From a phage: 49,223 nucleotides of DNA. Shown in pieces: positions 14,810-39,990 of the stretch (position 1 is its first letter; each line of letters opens with the position of its first letter). Under the pieces are notes generated by a model that was not told the DNA's origin, ran no database searches, and saw nothing but the letters and a program-made list of their open reading frames with translations. The position numbers and the translations under genes are program-made. The DNA lies in sequence record NC_103567.1; one strand, given 5' to 3'.

Positions 14810-14858
14810 CGTGCTAACACAAAAAACACTTGAACGTTTAACAAAAAATGCTATATTA

Positions 14859-28531: not shown

Positions 28532-28570
28532 ATGCCCTGGCTTAACGGTCGGGGCATTTTGTTTTCTTTT
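28532..28570 (+). terminator. terminator-like hairpin with long loop plus T-rich tail after the J-like gene
   Basis: ATGCCC...GGGCAT stem followed by TTTTGTTTTCTTTT. Confidence 0.45.
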
Positions 28571-28577
28571 GTTCTAC

Positions 28578-28675
28578 GGTGTTCACAACTTAATCCGGCG
28601 TAGAATTGAGAACGTTATGACAACAAAAAGAACAAATTAAATATCTATATAATACATACACTTAGAGTTTAATTA
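28578..28675 (+). repeat. copy B of the duplicated ~100-bp control-region element
   Basis: Aligns with 138-235 and is followed by similar TATATA-rich and GT-rich blocks. Confidence 0.7.
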
Positions 28676-28921
28676 TTATTATATATATCTATTTGTATCC
28701 TTCTTGTTTCCATTGTTCTCTATGGTTTGTAGTGGTTGTGTGTTTTGTGTTGGTTGATGGTTATATATCACATGGTATGTATTTATATATGGTATGCGGC
28801 GTAAATGCGTGAACAATGGAACACAAAAACAACAATTAGTAAAATCATAAACTTACGATGTGATTTTGTTGTCAATGCTAGTTGTAAACGTATTCAAAAC
28901 AAAAAGAACACTTAAATGGTA

Positions 28922-28949
28922 TTGACTACATGAAACATTCACATATAAT
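28922..28949 (+). promoter_or_regulatory. strong sigma70-like early promoter (TTGACT-N16-TATAAT)
   Basis: Near-consensus hexamers about 30 bp upstream of the exonuclease gene. Confidence 0.65.
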
Positions 28950-28977
28950 GCAGACATACCAACGAGAGGATGAATAA

Positions 28978-31607: not shown

Positions 31608-33980
31608 TTACTTAGCAATCTGAATAAACATTGATTGCATTTCCTCGATCATCTTTTTCATTTCTGCTACTTCATTTTTTAGCTCATTGATTTCATCTTG
31701 TTGCTTCTGAATGGTTTCATTCTGCTTATCTGAATCATCAATCATTTCATTAATTGCGTTAACCAAAAGAGCAGTTACACCGCCATAGCTAACGCCTAAA
31801 ATTTCAGAATCAGATACCTTGTAAACCGCTTCCGGCAAAACAGTCTGAACATCTTGAGCTATTACGCCAGCTTCCTCAGAGTAGAAAGAATTTTCATCTT
31901 CTTCTAGGCTATTGCGCTTAAAGTAAGTGTATCCCTTAATTGATTTAACTTTATCTTTGGCGCTTTTAATCTCCTTTAGATTTGCCTTTAGTCGAATATC
32001 AGATGTATTAACCCATTGAACAGCGCTTGCATAACCAGCATCATTAAAAGTGTATGATGTACCTCTTACGTTTAGGTGAGCTTCGCAACCTCCAGCGCCA
32101 TATCTGGCAACATCTATACCAAAAACCCAATCATAACCCCACCTTACAACCTTAACAACGTTAACGGCTACATCATCGCCTGGAAGTTCAACAAGCATAC
32201 CAGCGGCGCGATCACGCCATGCAGTAAAAGCACCACCCTCAACATGCCCACCTATAAAGCAATTCGCACCACCCCTCCTAACACCTTCAACATAAGCAAA
32301 ACGTGCATCTTCTGGAGCAAATGATTGAATAGTTCTGTATGCAACATTGCCACTCTTTGTAAATGCAAACATCACTTGATTATCAGCAATAGCTTGAAGA
32401 ATGCCATCTCCATTTTGCCTAAATCCAGTATCAGTATCTCCAATTACTATAGAGTTACTACCAAGAGCATTACCAATCCCCCTACCGATTGTTATTGAGT
32501 TGTAATTCAGCGCGTTGCCACTTTCATCAAACTGATAATAGTTTGTGTCGCCACCTTCTCTAGTTACTTGAATAGTTGCCTTTGCAATCCCACCCTGAAT
32601 TTCGTTGTAAACCCTTGAATACGAAATCTGTACTCCTTCTGCATTTTTGTTTAACAAATAAAGTATGCCGGAGTTTGCAGAGTTTTTTTCTGTTAGGCTT
32701 ATTCCTCTAAAAACAGGAATGTCAGTTTCACCAATGCCAAAATTACTCCTTGCTTGCCCTATGCTTTGAGCGCCAGTGCCTCCTCGTTCGATGTGTAATG
32801 GTTTGATGTTTCCATAATCATCTTGAACACCCCACACACCATTGTTAGCTACAAGCATATTTAGTTTTCCATCAGGTGATTTTATGGAGTTAAAATCTCC
32901 TGGTGTTTCGCTAGTAATGCAAAAAACACCTTGCACACGAAAGTTTTTTCTTGCACCTTCAATATTTTCCGCACCAGTGCCGCCAGCACCAACAGAAAGA
33001 GCGGATGTGCTGTTATCGCTATTTCTTGCAACTCGCCACTCGCCGTTGTTTGCGATCCGTAATTCATAAGTCCATGCAGGGTTACGAAATGAGTTATAAT
33101 CACCTGGATTTTGCCCCTTAACTGAATTAACAGCCTCAACTTTCAGCGCCTCCCTTGCTAAATCTTTATTAGCAAGATCATTAAGATTCTGATCCTTATG
33201 CAGAAGGTTTTCAGGGTTAACTTGTTGTGCCCATTGGCGAGCTTCATCACGCGCAGTTTCAGCTCCAGCCTTTGCAGAGTCGGCGGCAATCTTTGATTGT
33301 TCAGCGGCAAGTTGTGATTCCTTTGCTGCATCGCGAGCATTAACAGCCTCGTTTTTAATTGATCCAATTTCAGCAACGGCGCTATCTTTTATTTGTTGCG
33401 TCTGCGTTTTTATTGCGTCAGTGTCTGCCTTAATCTGATTGGTTTCATAAACAGCAGCATCCTTAATCCGTTGAGTTTCTGCAATCGCAGTATCTTTAAT
33501 TTGCGTAGTCTCAGAAACAGCGGCATCCTTAATAGCTTGCGTGTCGTTTTTTAATTGCTCAGTTGCGGCGCGATCTGCATCCGTTTTTTGTGCGGAAGAC
33601 TCAGCGCGAGCAACAAGATCCTGTAATGTTTTAAGGTCAAAGTTTTTGAAGAATTCAATTGCTTCCTCAATAACCGTTTCTTTACTTTGGTAATATCTCA
33701 GCGTTTCCGCTACATCTTGCGCCATTCCATCGACAGTTAGCGAGTCATTCAACAGGATTACATAATTTCCGTTTGCTACTGGCTCGCCGTCAGTCTGGAT
33801 CGCTTTCATTTCCGTGTCGCTTACAATATCGCTGATAACCGCCAGCTTTAAAGGCGTGGTTAAAAAAACGATTGTTGCGCCAGTGCGAATAAGAGAAAGC
33901 GGCTCACGCCATTTTGTGCCAGTACCAGTGATAACGCCTTGTGCGTCCATTGCAGCCGTACCAGTGCGATATAAAGCCAT
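31608..33980 (-). CDS. tail fibre with C-terminal intramolecular chaperone (peptidase S74-like) domain
   Basis: 790 aa; internal ~11-aa repeats (IKDAAVSETTQIKDTAIAETQRIKDAAV...); C-terminal SDIRLKANLKEI...coiled coil resembles the auto-cleaving chaperone domain. Confidence 0.7.
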   Translation of the reverse strand: MALYRTGTAAMDAQGVITGTGTKWREPLSLIRTGATIVFLTTPLKLAVISDIVSDTEMKAIQTDGEPVANGNYVILLNDSLTVDGMAQDVAETLRYYQSKETVIEEAIEFFKNFDLKTLQDLVARAESSAQKTDADRAATEQLKNDTQAIKDAAVSETTQIKDTAIAETQRIKDAAVYETNQIKADTDAIKTQTQQIKDSAVAEIGSIKNEAVNARDAAKESQLAAEQSKIAADSAKAGAETARDEARQWAQQVNPENLLHKDQNLNDLANKDLAREALKVEAVNSVKGQNPGDYNSFRNPAWTYELRIANNGEWRVARNSDNSTSALSVGAGGTGAENIEGARKNFRVQGVFCITSETPGDFNSIKSPDGKLNMLVANNGVWGVQDDYGNIKPLHIERGGTGAQSIGQARSNFGIGETDIPVFRGISLTEKNSANSGILYLLNKNAEGVQISYSRVYNEIQGGIAKATIQVTREGGDTNYYQFDESGNALNYNSITIGRGIGNALGSNSIVIGDTDTGFRQNGDGILQAIADNQVMFAFTKSGNVAYRTIQSFAPEDARFAYVEGVRRGGANCFIGGHVEGGAFTAWRDRAAGMLVELPGDDVAVNVVKVVRWGYDWVFGIDVARYGAGGCEAHLNVRGTSYTFNDAGYASAVQWVNTSDIRLKANLKEIKSAKDKVKSIKGYTYFKRNSLEEDENSFYSEEAGVIAQDVQTVLPEAVYKVSDSEILGVSYGGVTALLVNAINEMIDDSDKQNETIQKQQDEINELKNEVAEMKKMIEEMQSMFIQIAK

Positions 33981-33991
33981 AATTTCACCTC

Positions 33992-34011
33992 ATAGCATTT
34001 TTTGTTAAAAT
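33992..34011 (+). promoter_or_regulatory. 21-bp motif variant (ATAGCATTTTTTGTTAAAAT), orphan copy pointing antisense to the primase gene
   Basis: Plus-strand orientation between two minus-strand genes; followed by CCATTTGTTACATG and GC hairpin CCCCGCCGAAGCGGGG. Confidence 0.45.
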
Positions 34012-34050
34012 AGGTCATGTAATTATGCTACAGCCATTTGTTACATGCAA

Positions 34051-34073
34051 TAAAAAACCCCGCCGAAGCGGGG
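34051..34073 (-). terminator. rho-independent terminator for the primase transcript
   Basis: On the minus strand CCCCGCTTCGGCGGGG followed by T6. Confidence 0.65.
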
Positions 34074-34140
34074 CATCGTTAACGACAACGAGAAGTCAAT
34101 GAAACAGATTCATCGAAAAGTGTTAGTAGCAGGATGAATA

Positions 34141-35067
34141 TTATAATAAGTCACTTGCCTTGTAAAGCCTCCGCTCTATTCCATTTTTGAATTTACCGTT
34201 AATTGGTAACATTACGTCTAATTCGCGATCATCAGCAGCAATCAAAGTATCGCGATCATTAGCATGGCACACAACGCGCATTTTGCGATCACCTTTGTAG
34301 CGATACGCTACTATTTCAAGATTCGACGCAGAGAAGCAAGCCCATACTTCTTGTCCCGTAGCTAGGTGGATATGTTGCGCATCAATCCAATCAACGCAAA
34401 GGTAAATTGTTTTGTCAGTCTTGCCAGTTACCGCAACGGAGCCGCGCGTGTAATCCTTAGCGTAAAAACTGCTTTGACCTTCCTCATTGACGAAAAGAAT
34501 ATTACACATTTCATCATCCAGTTCATCGCTATGCACCAAGTGGCAAGGAATTGCGTGTATATGCTCGCAATATCCATTGTCATGAGTTTTTACTCCAACT
34601 TGATACGATTCGCCGTCTAATGGATAAAACGCCTCAAAAACGCTTAGATTTGTTATTTCCATGCGTTCAGTTTTATCCATCACCTCAACACATTTTTCAT
34701 GTGGTGCTTGCGATCCGAAATTGTAACCTGAGTCACGTTTTGCCGCTTTGTTGGCCTTGTTGACAACCTCAACCGGAACCAGGTTTAACCATTCTCCTAG
34801 AGTGTCGATTGCTTCACTGTAATTTTCACCACGTATGCGCATGAATAATCCGATCCCTGAATCATTCCCGCATTGGTTGCAAATGTTTCCGCCGTCGCCT
34901 TTCTCGTTGATTTTGTCAGTCCAACGAAAGCGATCTTTACCGCCGCAATAAGGGCAAGGCTGATGCTTTCCGTTAAAGGTTAATTGAGGAATATCGCAAA
35001 GTTTCATCAATGCCGCTTGCCACATGCCGCGCATCTTTGGGATTACTTCTTCTTTTTGATAATGCAT
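34141..35067 (-). CDS. DNA primase (zinc-ribbon plus Toprim-like)
   Basis: 308 aa; CPYCGGKDRFRW...CNQCG matches the primase zinc-ribbon pattern CPxCGGxDRF...CxxCG. Confidence 0.7.
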   Translation of the reverse strand: MHYQKEEVIPKMRGMWQAALMKLCDIPQLTFNGKHQPCPYCGGKDRFRWTDKINEKGDGGNICNQCGNDSGIGLFMRIRGENYSEAIDTLGEWLNLVPVEVVNKANKAAKRDSGYNFGSQAPHEKCVEVMDKTERMEITNLSVFEAFYPLDGESYQVGVKTHDNGYCEHIHAIPCHLVHSDELDDEMCNILFVNEEGQSSFYAKDYTRGSVAVTGKTDKTIYLCVDWIDAQHIHLATGQEVWACFSASNLEIVAYRYKGDRKMRVVCHANDRDTLIAADDRELDVMLPINGKFKNGIERRLYKASDLL

Positions 35068-35082
35068 TTCTCAACATCCAAA

Positions 35083-35116
35083 TAAAAAAAACTGGCACGA
35101 TGATAAACCATGCCAG
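35083..35116 (-). terminator. rho-independent terminator between the HTH gene and the primase gene
   Basis: On the minus strand CTGGCATGG...CGTGCCAG hairpin followed by a long T-run. Confidence 0.6.
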
Positions 35117-35126
35117 GCCGGAATTT

Positions 35127-35735
35127 TTAGCAATCAGTGCTATCGACGGAAATCACAACGCGTTTCTTCTGATTGGCTTCCTTTGCTTTGCGCCGTTCTT
35201 CTTTCGCCTTGTCTCGTTCAGCCTTGCGCCGCGCTTTCTCCTTCTCGCGTTCTTCTGGACTCATAGACCGCAACGGATCGTAAGGACGCACAAATCCTCT
35301 TGCTTCCGCTTCCTCTTTGGTTACAAATCGCATGAGCTTTCTGTTGCTGCAACGATTCTCTAATGGCTTGCCGTTGTTGTCAAAGCGCAAATCTGGACGG
35401 CAATATGAAGCGCGGAAGCCGTTAAAACCTTTGCGGCGGTAATCCTTTTGGATCAGTTCAGCGCCTTTAGCTGAAATCATGCCGCGCTCTTTCCATCCCC
35501 ACACTGTTTTAAGGTTAACGCCAATCTCACGCGCCAACGCAGCACAGCCGCCATAAGCGCTAACCACCTCATCAAGCCTCGCTTTTAATCCTGCCCTTAC
35601 TTCTTCCTTTAGTACCAGATAACCGCTAACAGGTGCGCGGCGCTTCCGGTCTTTACCACGCCTTACGCCGTTGTTACCATTGATTGTGCGTTTGTCGATT
35701 TCGCCCGTTGAGGCCGCAATTTTGATTTCGCTCAT
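35127..35735 (-). CDS. DNA-binding protein with predicted helix-turn-helix and highly basic C-terminal tail
   Basis: 202 aa; GCAALAREIGVNLKTVWGWKERG looks like an HTH; C-terminus KEKARRKAERDKAKEERRKAKEANQKK. Confidence 0.6.
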   Translation of the reverse strand: MSEIKIAASTGEIDKRTINGNNGVRRGKDRKRRAPVSGYLVLKEEVRAGLKARLDEVVSAYGGCAALAREIGVNLKTVWGWKERGMISAKGAELIQKDYRRKGFNGFRASYCRPDLRFDNNGKPLENRCSNRKLMRFVTKEEAEARGFVRPYDPLRSMSPEEREKEKARRKAERDKAKEERRKAKEANQKKRVVISVDSTDC

Positions 35736-35745
35736 ATTTTCACCT

Positions 35746-35767
35746 ATAGCACTTTTTGCTAAAAAAC
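35746..35767 (+). promoter_or_regulatory. 21-bp motif, class I variant
   Basis: TATAGCACTTTTTGCTAAAAAAC, then TGTGTATGAT -10-like element; helicase gene follows. Confidence 0.55.
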
Positions 35768-35823
35768 TTGATTAAGTTTGTGTATGATATGCCGCAAATG
35801 GCATTTAGTCAAAAGGATAAAAA

Positions 35824-37797
35824 ATGATTCCTAACATTGAAAAGCAGATTGCAGATCTGGGAGAGGAAAGGATTAAGGCAATCCAGAAGCGTTTCACGGT
35901 TGGTGAGATTGTCCCGTATGAATACCAATGCGTTGCTTACGCTGAAATTGCAAAGCGCTTGAGTAAGTATGTTGATCCGTTTTTCGTTAAAGCGGCGGTG
36001 TCGGCAGGTAAAACAATCATCTTTGCTATGGTTGCGGCTCAGTGCAGGAAAATGGGATTGAAAGCGTTATTTCTGGCGCGTCAATCTGAAATTGTGGATC
36101 AGGATTCAAAAGAGATTAGCGCCTTTGGTGTTCCGAATTCCGTTTATTGCGCTGGCCTGAATACCAAAAGCGCTTATTTCCCGATTGTTGTAGGATCGGA
36201 AGGTACTGTAATTGGCGGATTGAATAAGGCGTTAGGTGATTACGTCCCACAGGTTTTAGGTATAGATGAATGTCATCAAGTCAACTGGAATGATATTGTT
36301 GAAGCCGAGGAAAACGGCGAAAGCATAGAGCAAATGATGACACCGAAAGGTGAACCAGTTGAAGGCAATCCGTTGCTGATTGGTTCAGGCCGCGCACAAT
36401 ACACCATTATCATTGCAGAAATGCGCCGCCGTTGTCTTGAGACTTACGGTCATCAGTTGCGTATATTTGGAATGACAGGATCGGAATATCGCGGAATTGA
36501 GCCGATACTTGTCGAAGATAAAAGAATTCCTGGGTTTTGGCGTGAGCAGATCACAAACATTGATACTGATTACCTGGTAAAATTTGGTTCAGTTGTTCCC
36601 ACTTATTTTGGCAATGTTGGTGATTTGGGTTACGACTTATCAGAATTTACGCCAGTGAATGAATTTGGCGTTGCTGATTATGACCAGAAGCAATTAAAGG
36701 CCATGAGTGACAAGATTCACCAATCAGGAACCATGACGCAGAAAATAATGCAGATGGTTCACGAGGTGATGAAAAACCGCTTGTGCGCTCTTGTTACTTG
36801 CGCTGACGAAAGGCACTGCAAAGAGGCAGCGGCGGCGCTTCCTCCTGGCACGAAATATCACATTATTACCGGAAAAACTGGAGAGAAACAGAGGCGCTTA
36901 TGGCTTGAGGATGCTTATGAAGGCAGGGTGAAATATATTTTTCAGGTTCAGGCGCTAACAACTGGCGTGAACGTGCCGCCGTGGGATACTTCTGTTATTT
37001 TGCGTAAGATCGGAAGTCTCACGCTATTAACTCAGCTTTTGGGGCGTGGTATGCGTCAATTAAAAACATACCATAAAGAAGTATTGGGGATGCACAAAAC
37101 GGATCACCTTGTTTTGGATTTTTCAGGCACGATGTTTGAAATGGGTAATTTGTATTTCGATCCGATGTTAGAGCAAGCGCAATTCCAGTTACGTAAATCA
37201 CAGGACAAAGATCCGAAATATTGCCCGATTTGCGGTACAGAAAATTCATTCTATGCTCGCCGTTGCATTAATGAGGATGAAAACGGAAATCGTTGTGAAC
37301 ATTTCTGGACGTTCCAGGAATGTGAGGATCAGATTGATGACCGCACAAAGAAAGTTATTGTAAAAGGTTGCGGCGCAAAAAATGACGTTGCGGCGCGTGT
37401 ATGCCGTTGCTGTAATGTTCAGTTACGCGATCCAAATGATAACTTATCCGGCAAGATGTACCGTAAAAACGATTGGTGCGACGTGTTAGATTTTAATGTG
37501 ACGCTGACAAAAAACCAGGCTGGCGTAATATTCTGCTACACGTTACGTGATAGTGGCGGCGTAGAATTCAGGGCATACGAAAAATATTTCCCTGAATCAG
37601 AACACAAGATATGTAAAACGCTTTGGACAAAGGCGGTTAGAACACATGTTATAGATCGCCAAGCCGCAAACTTTATGATCGCTTGCCGCAATGCAATTAA
37701 GATCATGAGTTATGCGGGGCAAATATTGCCGCCAAAACGTGTTACCCATCGCAAGAACACAAAGAAAGAAGATTTGATCGCACAGAAGGAGTTTTAA
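35824..37797 (+). CDS. superfamily-2 ATP-dependent helicase with C-terminal zinc-ribbon motifs
   Basis: 657 aa; Walker A VSAGKT, DExH-like LGIDECHQV; C-terminal CPICG...C..C and CGAKN...CRCC pairs. Confidence 0.8.
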   Translation: MIPNIEKQIADLGEERIKAIQKRFTVGEIVPYEYQCVAYAEIAKRLSKYVDPFFVKAAVSAGKTIIFAMVAAQCRKMGLKALFLARQSEIVDQDSKEISAFGVPNSVYCAGLNTKSAYFPIVVGSEGTVIGGLNKALGDYVPQVLGIDECHQVNWNDIVEAEENGESIEQMMTPKGEPVEGNPLLIGSGRAQYTIIIAEMRRRCLETYGHQLRIFGMTGSEYRGIEPILVEDKRIPGFWREQITNIDTDYLVKFGSVVPTYFGNVGDLGYDLSEFTPVNEFGVADYDQKQLKAMSDKIHQSGTMTQKIMQMVHEVMKNRLCALVTCADERHCKEAAAALPPGTKYHIITGKTGEKQRRLWLEDAYEGRVKYIFQVQALTTGVNVPPWDTSVILRKIGSLTLLTQLLGRGMRQLKTYHKEVLGMHKTDHLVLDFSGTMFEMGNLYFDPMLEQAQFQLRKSQDKDPKYCPICGTENSFYARRCINEDENGNRCEHFWTFQECEDQIDDRTKKVIVKGCGAKNDVAARVCRCCNVQLRDPNDNLSGKMYRKNDWCDVLDFNVTLTKNQAGVIFCYTLRDSGGVEFRAYEKYFPESEHKICKTLWTKAVRTHVIDRQAANFMIACRNAIKIMSYAGQILPPKRVTHRKNTKKEDLIAQKEF

Positions 37798-37799
37798 AA

Positions 37800-38207
37800 A
37801 TGGTTACTGATAAAGGCGATTATCTGGAGTATTACGACAAATCAGATCCAGATGACAGAAAAGAGGAAGCGCACCAGGTTGATTCTTATTCATGGTTAAC
37901 ATATGAGTTTCCAATGTGGCTTGTTTGGCACACTAAAAACGAAGGGAAGAAAACAATAGGCACAGCAGTAAAGGATCAGCAAGCAGGTGTAAAAAAAGGA
38001 GTAAGCGACATTCTAATCCTGACTGGTTTTATTGGCTGCAAATATGCATTCATTGCAATTGAGCTTAAACGAGCCAACAAGAAAGGAACTAAAGTAAGCC
38101 AGGAACAAAGGGAATTCTTGCGCCGCGTTAGGGAATGCGGAGGATTTGCCGCAGTATGCTATGGTGTAGATCAAGTAAAATTGGCTATCGCAGACGCTAC
38201 AAAATAG
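37800..38207 (+). CDS. VRR-NUC-like PD-(D/E)xK nuclease
   Basis: 135 aa; DILILTGF...IAIELKRAN fits a D...ExK core; immediately follows the helicase. Confidence 0.6.
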   Translation: MVTDKGDYLEYYDKSDPDDRKEEAHQVDSYSWLTYEFPMWLVWHTKNEGKKTIGTAVKDQQAGVKKGVSDILILTGFIGCKYAFIAIELKRANKKGTKVSQEQREFLRRVRECGGFAAVCYGVDQVKLAIADATK

Positions 38208-38223
38208 CACTTTTTGTTAAAAC
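38203..38223 (+). promoter_or_regulatory. 21-bp motif, class I
   Basis: AATAGCACTTTTTGTTAAAAC then GGCGC...GCGCC and CATAAT. Confidence 0.6.
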
Positions 38224-38278
38224 AGGCGCGACGGAATGCGCCATAATGCACACATCAGAACGAAACGGAGAATTAACC

Positions 38279-38557
38279 ATGAAAAAGATGTTATCAGTAG
38301 TTGCTTTATCACTTGCCATTGTTGGTTGCATGGATAAACCAAAAACATATATTTGCGGAAATGAAGCGTTTGAGGTTACAAGCGAATATATGAAAGTTGT
38401 GCAAGGTAAAAGCACAGGCGTTGTAATGGATAATATCAGCAAAAATCAATATAAGCTGTTTACGCCAATTGGAACGGCTTTTTACACTGTTAACGATAGC
38501 ACCATTGATATTAAAGTTGGCGTTTATCAGAACACTCTAACTTGCGAGGTAAAATAA
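38279..38557 (+). CDS. lipoprotein (possible superinfection-exclusion protein)
   Basis: ORF track 38135-38557; internal start gives MKKMLSVVALSLAIVGC with lipobox; GGAGAA RBS. Confidence 0.6.
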   Translation: MKKMLSVVALSLAIVGCMDKPKTYICGNEAFEVTSEYMKVVQGKSTGVVMDNISKNQYKLFTPIGTAFYTVNDSTIDIKVGVYQNTLTCEVK

Positions 38558-38558
38558 A

Positions 38559-39299
38559 ATGGCTAAGGATTTTCAGGACAAAGCAACCATTGATACTTTT
38601 GAGCCGGAAATGGATTTTCATGAACTGCAACACGGCAGATATTCAGATATTGCTTTACGTTCAGGCGGTCATTATCAGCCAGTTAGAGAAAACCCATTAT
38701 TTAAGGTTAGCGGCAACCGTTATGCAGGAAGTAAAACGCCGGACGTAGTGCGCGACTTGTGGGAAACTCCAGATGAAATTGTTGAATACCTTGCTGAACG
38801 TTACGGCAAATATGATCTTGACGCAGCAGCAACGGAAGATAATAAAAAATGCGATAAATTTTACAGCAAAGAAACAAACTGCTTAAAGCGTTGGTGGGGT
38901 AGCAATAAGCACGTTTGGTTAAATCCACCATACAGCAATCCAGATCCATTTATCAAAAAAGCAATTGAGCAGATGGAACACGGAAACCAGATTGATATTT
39001 TACTTCCGGCTGATAATTCAACTGCATGGTTTAGTGACGCACAAAAACATGCGGCAGAAATTATCTGGATTACTGGTGAAACCTGGAAGGATGAAGAAGG
39101 TCGCGAATATTCCAGAACTGGTCGAGTGGCGTTTATTTCTGGCATGACAGGTGAGCCAGTTAGCGGAAACAATAAAGGTAGTGTAATTTTTATCATGCGC
39201 CAATTGGAAGAAGGTGAGCAACAGCAAACGCACTATGTGAAGATTAGCGACATTTGCCCTTCCGTAAAAAATAAACGAGCCAAAGCGCGGAGTATTTAA
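38559..39299 (+). CDS. dam: DNA N6-adenine methyltransferase (phage Dam-like)
   Basis: 246 aa; VWLNPPYS carries the (D/N)PPY catalytic motif of N6-adenine methyltransferases. Confidence 0.8.
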   Translation: MAKDFQDKATIDTFEPEMDFHELQHGRYSDIALRSGGHYQPVRENPLFKVSGNRYAGSKTPDVVRDLWETPDEIVEYLAERYGKYDLDAAATEDNKKCDKFYSKETNCLKRWWGSNKHVWLNPPYSNPDPFIKKAIEQMEHGNQIDILLPADNSTAWFSDAQKHAAEIIWITGETWKDEEGREYSRTGRVAFISGMTGEPVSGNNKGSVIFIMRQLEEGEQQQTHYVKISDICPSVKNKRAKARSI

Positions 39300-39602: not shown

Positions 39603-39767
39603 ATGAAAATCGTAAACGTCGAATACTTCAAAGATGCGCAATGGCTGGCTAAAGAATCATTGTTTATGCTTGATCGCAAAAATCCAAAGGTTATTGCACA
39701 AATACTTTGGAATGACGCAATGGAGTTACTTAAAAAGGCTTACGGTTATGAAAGTGAAGAAAGGTAA
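39603..39767 (+). CDS. hypothetical small protein
   Basis: ORF track 39570-39767; internal ATG 39603 has AAGAGGA RBS. Confidence 0.5.
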   Translation: MKIVNVEYFKDAQWLAKESLFMLDRKNPKVIAQILWNDAMELLKKAYGYESEER

Positions 39768-39990
39768 AAAGGAAACTTGGGAGCTTGCTAAAAAAGGCGG
39801 TCTTGATGAAGGGATCGCCAAAATAGCAAAGTATTTCGATATTAAAGACGTGTGCGTTATTGTTGGTGACGAAATGGCGTATGTTGAAGAAAAGCCGCGA
39901 CGTGTTCACCGTGTTCCAGCAATACCAACAACAATCGACTATAAAGAAGTTATTAACAAAACCAAAGAGCAGAAGAAATATTACAAATGA
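39748..39990 (+). CDS. hypothetical protein
   Basis: ORF track 39634-39990; likely start at internal ATG 39748 (MKVKKGKK...). Confidence 0.4.
   Translation: MKVKKGKKETWELAKKGGLDEGIAKIAKYFDIKDVCVIVGDEMAYVEEKPRRVHRVPAIPTTIDYKEVINKTKEQKKYYK

Follow-up and report, generated by a model that had tools for sequence, protein, structure and literature searches.

The window (the whole stretch of DNA that was analysed, 49,223 nucleotides in length) is the complete or near-complete genome of a Tlsvirus (Drexlerviridae, Tempevirinae), and is approximately 99% identical to Salmonella phage phSE-2. The gene of interest, which encodes a Cro-type helix-turn-helix (HTH) protein referred to here as the regulator, is located between those of a primase and a helicase. 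The 4.3-kb stretch around it displays 99.2-99.3% identity to Salmonella phages PCST1, phSE-2, and phSE-5, and about 96% identity to Citrobacter phage Stevie. The locus holds the following features:

34141..35067, - strand: zinc-ribbon/Toprim primase
35092..35116, - strand: intrinsic terminator for the regulator gene (T57 of TLS; Suppl. Table S1, PMC11447400)
35125..35145, - strand: copy of a 21-nt motif (equivalent of TLS DR10) over the last five codons and the stop of the regulator gene; predicted primase promoter
35127..35735, - strand: regulator ORF, 202 aa, coordinates including the stop; Cro-type HTH protein, PHROG 2856
35145..35258, - strand: long mixed-charge (E/R/K) helix, aa 160-197, confined to the Tlsvirus clade
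35301..35618, - strand: confidently modelled core, aa 40-145, with four Cro/XRE-type helices and an extra subdomain with CRPDLxFDxNGK
35484..35546, - strand: HTH, aa 64-84 (helix 64-71, turn, putative recognition helix 75-84)
35631..35702, - strand: basic arm at the N-terminus, aa 12-35, EIDKRTINGNNGVRRGKDRKRRAP; predicted disordered, with the strongest conservation in the family
35744..35764, + strand: motif copy (equivalent of TLS DR11), with dyad TAGCA-N5-TGCTA at 35747..35761; points to the helicase
35783..35788, + strand: -10 TATGAT of the helicase-direction motif promoter, overlapping the regulator -10 by 5 bp
35784..35812, - strand: canonical sigma-70 promoter of the regulator (-35 TTGACT at 35812..35807, 17-bp spacer, -10 TATCAT at 35789..35784)
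35824..37797, + strand: SF2 helicase, with a VRR-NUC nuclease gene next to it

The 202-residue ORF is real: it matches the PHROG 2856 profile over its full length (E 4.3e-76, aa 4-171 versus profile positions 2-163 of 165), and its equivalents in TLS (gp57), Stevie (gp29), and phSE-2 (gp43), all annotated as "transcriptional regulator", are 97-100% identical to it and occupy the identical genomic position. The arrangement described in an earlier reading made from the sequence only, in which the gene is placed between primase and helicase and is divergent from the latter, was also borne out, the regulator being encoded on the - strand and the helicase on the + strand. In the paper that describes TLS, gp57 figures only as a table entry (202 aa, pI 10.3), with no link to the 21-nt repeats of that genome (PMC11447400). 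Neither a binding experiment on the regulator nor a functional study in T1-like phages was found in the searchable literature.

The central HTH claimed by the sequence-only reading was found at aa 64-84 as a Cro-type motif, in the AF2 model as well as in the family profile and alignment. Structure prediction, which had been proposed as a check, models aa 40-145 confidently and as Cro-like (AF2 monomer). In this model the core appears to resemble all-alpha Cro proteins, with a predicted helical Cro/XRE fold whose HTH lies in helices 2-3. The family profile recognizes Xfaso-1 Cro (PDB 3bd1) with an E of 0.0012, and many homologues carry precomputed matches to PF14549 (P22_Cro) or PF15943; the regulator itself scores 26.5 bits against PF15943 (YdaS_toxin), below the 30-bit cut-off. 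In terms of size it departs from the all-alpha Cro proteins, which are single domains of ~60-80 aa, since it has 202 aa, and the lengths within its family run from 133 to 208 aa. Fold and sequence together appear to place the regulator with the all-alpha Cro/YdaS group, with family-specific additions. The first of these is the N-terminal arm, with a pLDDT of 43-64 (AF2) and a net charge of +6, in which residues D14, K15, R16, N19, G20, N21, N22, R26, D29, and R33 are invariant in the family alignment; selection on the arm acts at the peptide level, because these invariant residues are encoded by varied synonymous codons. An invariant family signature, R-G-M-I-S, directly follows the HTH, and a further conserved stretch reads G-F/Y-R-A-x-x-C-R-P-D-L-x-F-D-x-N-G-K. 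The C-terminus, which had been described as extremely basic, is a mixed-charge helix at aa 160-197, not a poly-basic tail, and is found in the Tlsvirus clade only; the earlier observation thus stands for the ORF and the HTH, and falls for the tail.

Relatives of the regulator were detected by tblastn in 830 phage records, essentially all of Drexlerviridae, and among 60 evenly spaced rows of this search none corresponded to a record larger than 53 kb. A profile search of 1.8 billion representative proteins yielded only ~20 full-length clusters, the remaining matches being mostly proteins of ~80-100 aa, several of which are sub-threshold for YdaS or P22 Cro. Some records carry unexpected host names: "Streptococcus phage MBBL140" has a relative at 97% protein identity in a Tlsvirus-sized 49-kb genome, and "Campylobacter phage" records hold relatives at about 56% identity in T1-sized genomes. 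It is probable that the Campylobacter and Streptococcus labels are mistaken, or that they stem from contamination by T1-like coliphages.

In the 99%-identical genome of phSE-2, none of the 46 remaining hypothetical proteins matched a Pfam family of DNA-binding proteins, and the look for other DNA-binding proteins by PHROG covered 25 of 53 families listed. T1-like phages are not known to encode an RNA polymerase or sigma factor. The regulator is the only recognizable DNA-binding regulator in the genome, and is therefore the natural first candidate for the repeats, in keeping with its earlier designation as the most obvious phage-encoded one. The Cro-type HTH, the canonical promoter that the gene possesses, and the lack of a Pfam DNA-binding family among those 46 phSE-2 proteins all favor the view that it is a regulator, and it is very likely that it acts as a sequence-specific DNA-binding one. 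One further small protein is of note in this context, an 80-aa product encoded at 39748-39990 (+) that belongs to phrog_2817 and has a weak DUF7334 match, an AF2 pLDDT of 70, and no structural match found; apart from the regulator, it is the only non-enzymatic, non-structural protein common to the window and Pantoea phage AAM37, and it is absent from Escherichia phage Skarpretter.

The regulator gene is bracketed by two copies of the 21-nt repeat, whose consensus is AATAGCAC-N4-TGYTAAAAC. With no more than one mismatch allowed, the window holds 18 occurrences of ATAGCACNNNNTGYTAAAA, versus 0.02 expected; this is the repeat described for TLS as aaATAGCACnnnTTGnTAAAA, with 18 intergenic copies there and a function that the TLS authors named an open question (PMC11447400). 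The 18-20 copies of the window include the following:

1622, 2457, 3972, 5104, 6491, 30034, 35746, 38204, and 39528, + strand: motif copies
35143, 42717, 44881, 45561, 46974, 47926, 48745, and 49104, - strand: motif copies

When aligned, the copies display the dyad TAGCA-N5-TG(C/T)TA, 22 variable bases, a TATAAT-like hexamer, 6-7 bases, and a conserved CA. The predicted transcription start is a conserved A located ~7 nt past the -10 and ~51 nt from the first A of ATAGCAC. Of 125 dereplicated copies, taken from 80 related loci, 103 have their best -10 hexamer at offset 39 +/- 1. The 18 copies of the window have a mean -10 match of 5.0/6, with an extended -10 (TGn) in 9 of them, and lack a -35, their best match to this hexamer (2.44/6) being equal to random expectation (2.49). 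The fixed spacing of the -10, together with the absence of a -35, therefore places the dyad centre near -42 of a -35-less promoter, as counted from transcription starts that are inferred and not mapped; transcription-start data for Drexlerviridae were not found in the searchable literature. The copies are oriented with transcription and precede start codons by ~75 nt; they belong to the early and replication regions, the 20-kb structural (late) region being nearly free of them. As judged from its sequence context, the 21-nt repeat is a predicted promoter element.

Additional traits of these promoters deserve mention. Most carry, from the inferred +1, a conserved A/C-rich leader, CA(T)CGAAACGAA (as at 1672-1690), which is also seen in copies from the phages KP15 and C130_2. 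At most motif promoters, the stretch separating the motif from the inferred start contains a GC-rich inverted repeat of variable sequence, whose loop often includes the -10; over the 125 dereplicated copies, these hairpins have a mean folding z-score of -2.5, with 55% below -2, and some of them are the terminators of the upstream unit (TLS T57, T62). Two copies of a motif variant that has T at position 7, ATAGCATTTTTTGTTAAA, are found at 33992-34010 (+) and 14838-14854 (-) and oppose the surrounding genes. The former, which has a counterpart at the same position in distant relatives, is flanked by the primase terminator on one side and the start codon of the tail-fibre gene on the other, and is antisense into the primase. 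Single exact copies of AATAGCACTTTTTGYTAAA also occur in at least three recurring contexts within ~14-52 kb IMG/VR contigs, possibly prophages; these single-copy contexts showed no -10 at the usual spacing, no regulator homologue nearby, and no informative Pfam matches.

The regulator itself is served by a different kind of promoter. TTGACT-17-TATCAT has 10 of 12 matches, a score equalled but not exceeded elsewhere in the scanned region; TLS Suppl. Table S1 lists the identical sequence as P57, which is one of only three canonical promoters found in TLS by the 2024 reannotation (PMC11447400). The equivalents of the other two, TLS P01 and P51, each form the end of one of two paralogous AT-rich non-coding regions (~110-580 and ~28550-28960), which are ~450 bp long and 73% identical; these regions are probably the "control-region repeats" to which the sequence-only reading referred. 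The DR11-equivalent motif copy is located in the 5' leader of the regulator and ends beside its Shine-Dalgarno sequence, AGGTGA (35745..35740). Since the -10 hexamer of the helicase promoter overlaps the opposed regulator -10 by 5 bp, the two promoters share one bidirectional core. A motif copy at most ~15 nt upstream of the regulator start codon is a feature of Drexlerviridae representatives with a correctly placed start codon (Tlsvirus, T1-like, Rogunavirus-like, and Webervirus-like phages, and Vibrio phage Vc1), and a regulator-sense promoter is recognizable in most of them.

At the other end of the gene, the DR10-equivalent copy encodes GAT AGC ACT GAT TGC TAA, that is, DSTDC and the stop. 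In most other clades a motif-like sequence also covers the stop codon, in other reading frames (giving ESTNC, NSTNS, or DSTKS before the stop, or with a stop TAG within the motif). The differing frames imply that conservation occurs at the DNA level, and that the C-terminal residues are conserved as a by-product of the primase promoter. The loop of the regulator terminator contains the -10 of the primase promoter, TATCAT (35105..35100), so that transcripts started there should be devoid of the 5' arm of the hairpin.

Whether the motif depends on the regulator was addressed by comparison across phages. Covariation was analysed in 80 IMG/VR loci, Vc1, and AAM37. The putative recognition helix varies, being NLKTVWGW in Tlsvirus, SQQTVNQW in T1-like, TPQAVEEW in Rogunavirus-like, and SIQVVQQW in Webervirus-like phages, while Vc1 has VRLTNAY, with one extra residue immediately before the helix; none of these groups shows any change in ATAGCAC, the left half of the motif. 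With a variable helix and an invariant motif, the covariation test gives no support to motif binding. Helix position 76 alone is of similar character (K, Q, or R across Drexlerviridae, S in AAM37), and this conservative position leaves room for a common half-site. Pantoea phage AAM37 (a myovirus, Dibbivirus) has the same helicase/regulator/primase order and ~9 motif promoters; its homologue is ~99 aa long, has the helix FSGVRSW, and is devoid of the N-terminal arm, and its stop overlaps the primase start. The intergenic region between helicase and regulator in AAM37 holds no motif copy, and displays the palindromes AATAG-N5-CTATT and TCTATC-N2-GATAGA.

A scan of IMG/VR for the exact 19-mer identified many contigs outside Drexlerviridae. 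Skarpretter, which has P22-like virion genes, and C130_2 (genus Hungariovirus) also harbor this primase|helicase module, but in them the two genes diverge directly, with no regulator gene in between. An hmmsearch with the family profile (E<=10, ORFs >=40 aa) detected no homologue in the whole Skarpretter genome, and none in the first 20 kb of C130_2. At least six motif promoters with the -10 at offset 39-40 are nevertheless present in Skarpretter and at least four in C130_2, with similar A/C-rich leaders that in C130_2 include the same CATCGAAACGAA; the proteins common to phSE-2 and Skarpretter are only enzymes of the replication/recombination module. The T4-like Klebsiella phage KP15 (Slopekvirus) also has motif promoters, annotated as "putative middle promoter; discovered using MEME", and the class thus occurs in at least five groups (Drexlerviridae, Dibbivirus AAM37, Skarpretter, C130_2, and Slopekvirus KP15). 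The motif promoters being intact in Skarpretter and C130_2, where no homologue is detectable (in C130_2, within the first 20 kb), they do not depend on the regulator, which would appear to be at most a modulator of the 21-nt motif and not its required reader. As a general statement, the earlier proposal of binding to the 21-bp motif loses weight through the same two phages, through KP15, and through the variable helix.

The most economical reader of the motif is probably the host machinery. Among the matches listed from 185,579 species-representative bacterial genomes, the exact motif produced only scattered single matches in unrelated taxa, as chance expects, which argues against a host regulon with the exact motif among those matches. 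A UP element (A/T-only, -59 to -38) was rejected as an explanation, since the motif spans ~-52 to -31 and has invariant G/C (AGCAC, TG). Sigma-54 promoters have TGGCACG-N4-TTGCW, with exact spacing of the GG and GC elements; a sigma-54 reading was also discarded, given that TAGCAC-N-...-TTGC is 2 bp short in spacing, has AG for GG, and is followed by a TATAAT-like -10. The T-class dyad TAGCACTTTTTGCTA (TAGCA-CTTTT-TGCTA, 35747-35761) agrees with the E. coli Lrp SELEX consensus, yAGhAwATTwTdCTr (PMC5554404), in 13 of 15 positions, including every position of the two flanking pentamers; the per-site chance of at least 13 matches is 1.4e-4, for a consensus picked from among many, and the other motif classes reach 11-12 of 15. 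Lrp is not known to matter for T1-like phages. Lrp as the host reader is suggested by sequence as a lead, and not as a finding.

What has been observed is the fold, the conservation, the layout of the promoters, and which phages carry motif and protein; the DNA target, the sign of regulation, and its timing are what we infer. The reading that is preferred here, to which we assign a probability of approximately 0.35, is that of an early Cro-like autoregulator, also serving as a modulator, whose site of action is the motif dyad of its own leader. Host RNA polymerase would transcribe the regulator gene at once from the canonical sigma-70 promoter P57, and the protein would most likely bind the dyad TAGCA-N5-TGCTA at 35747-35761, ~17-31 nt downstream of the inferred start of its own transcript, thereby shutting off its own promoter. 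As regulator and helicase promoters share their -10 region, such binding would also shift the balance between the two directions. The same dyad lies near -42 in ~18 other promoters, and the regulator may modulate these as well, most plausibly by a Cro-like early shut-off, and would not be the factor that makes the motif promoters work. Binding to the motif dyad, considered by itself, is a tentative assignment that we hold at somewhat less than even odds, and it is to be set against the fact that the two flanking motif copies are sufficiently explained as the helicase and primase promoters.

Other roles must be weighed against autoregulation and modulation at the leader dyad. It is possible, if doubtful, that the regulator is a temporal switch that binds the dyad in all ~18 motif promoters, in competition or cooperation with a host reader, for which RNA polymerase and host proteins such as Lrp are candidates. 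If true, the early and replication gene set would be turned down or up, with autoregulation through the leader copy, and a one-protein early-to-late switch for T1-like phages would answer the question raised by the TLS authors regarding the 21-nt repeat. The protein could also be a purely local regulator, using another operator in the 88-bp divergent region and acting only on its own gene and the neighbouring ones, while the motif is read by host machinery or another factor. The existence of motif promoters without regulator in Skarpretter and C130_2, the lack of covariation between recognition helix and motif, the AAM37 control region with its other palindromes and no motif, and an inverted repeat, ATGCC-N6-GGCAT, at 35789-35804 inside the P57 spacer would all fit this idea; that repeat is not conserved as a dyad in other clades, however, and besides the -10 core the motif copy is the only element of the control region that is conserved across Drexlerviridae, and we regard a separate local operator as unlikely. 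Our first working model was that of an obligatory global class-II-type activator, whose dimer at the dyad would replace the -35 contact and recruit RNA polymerase at ~18 promoters. It was suggested by a dyad near -42 (the expected position being ~-41.5), by the -10 at offset 39 +/- 1 in most copies with no -35, and by the fact that the only recognizable HTH protein itself uses a canonical promoter. It was abandoned on the results from Skarpretter and C130_2, which have the same promoters but no detectable homologue, the promoters also occurring in KP15; half of the window copies have an extended -10 and could work unaided, and neither helix/motif covariation nor a Pfam Mor match was found, so that an obligatory activator now seems quite unlikely.

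We give little credence to the regulator being a replication accessory, that is, an origin-binding or primase/helicase-recruiting factor and not a transcription factor. Its position between primase and helicase is conserved in Drexlerviridae and AAM37, and the conserved N-terminal arm and CRPDLxFDxNGK subdomain could be protein-contact surfaces, but neither iterons nor tandem arrays occur in or beside the regulator, primase, and helicase genes (the one sizeable array within 33000-39000, of a 33-nt repeat, belongs to the tail-fibre gene), there is no AT-rich origin-like region at the locus, no initiator family was recognized in Pfam or PHROGs, and the same module works without regulator in Skarpretter and C130_2. 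GC skew is uninformative, as it merely follows the direction of transcription. A lambda O-type replication initiator, in particular, was rejected on account of the absence of iterons in or near the gene and of similarity to initiator families. The origin role that the sequence-only reading had offered as an option therefore gains no positive support, the motif copies lying in promoter contexts; of its interpretation, the regulator is supported by fold and context, and binding to the motif is weakened. Finally, a Q-like antiterminator, loaded on RNA polymerase at motif promoters and reading through intrinsic terminators, could be imagined from the ~20 predicted terminators and few promoters in the 20-kb late region of TLS, from the GC-rich hairpins embedded in motif promoters, and from the arginine-rich N-terminal arm, which is reminiscent of RNA-binding peptides. 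The protein displays no similarity to the Q or N families, though, the late region is almost without motif copies, and phages that lack the regulator share the promoter-with-hairpin architecture, making antitermination highly improbable.

Few coliphages or Klebsiella phages are commoner than the T1-like ones (Drexlerviridae), which find use in therapy and are notorious for contaminating laboratories. The annotation of the regulator was already known, and the -35-less motif promoter that is shared across families is the more interesting object; the question shifts from gp57 switching the repeats on to which host factor reads them, and whether gp57 turns them off.

Among known systems, the closest in fold are the all-alpha Cro proteins (P22 Cro, Xfaso-1 Cro (PDB 3bd1), N15 Cro, and YdaS). 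The regulator is three times larger than these, adds a 35-aa basic arm, the CRPDLxFDxNGK subdomain, and, in Tlsvirus, a 38-aa E/R/K helix, and comes from virulent phages without a partner repressor. In comparison with lambda Cro/cI at the divergent PR/PRM, its locus has one dyad and not three operators, the -10 hexamers overlap, and the dyad belongs to a promoter element which recurs across the genome and which phages without the regulator also have. Mu Mor/C, like lambda cI at PRM, are class II activators that replace the -35 contact and recruit host RNA polymerase. The motif promoters resemble Mor/C targets in having a dyad near -42 to -43.5 and a -10 but no -35; the regulator, however, has no sequence relation to these proteins, with no Pfam Mor match at E<=0.1, and the motif promoters persist without it. 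For the repeats, the TLS authors proposed the "stoperators" of mycobacteriophage L5 gp71 (PMC11447400), which they resemble in being many copies of one site, all oriented with transcription; unlike stoperators, which are scattered within units, the repeats lie 38-40 nt from a -10 and ~75 nt before start codons, in the position of a promoter.
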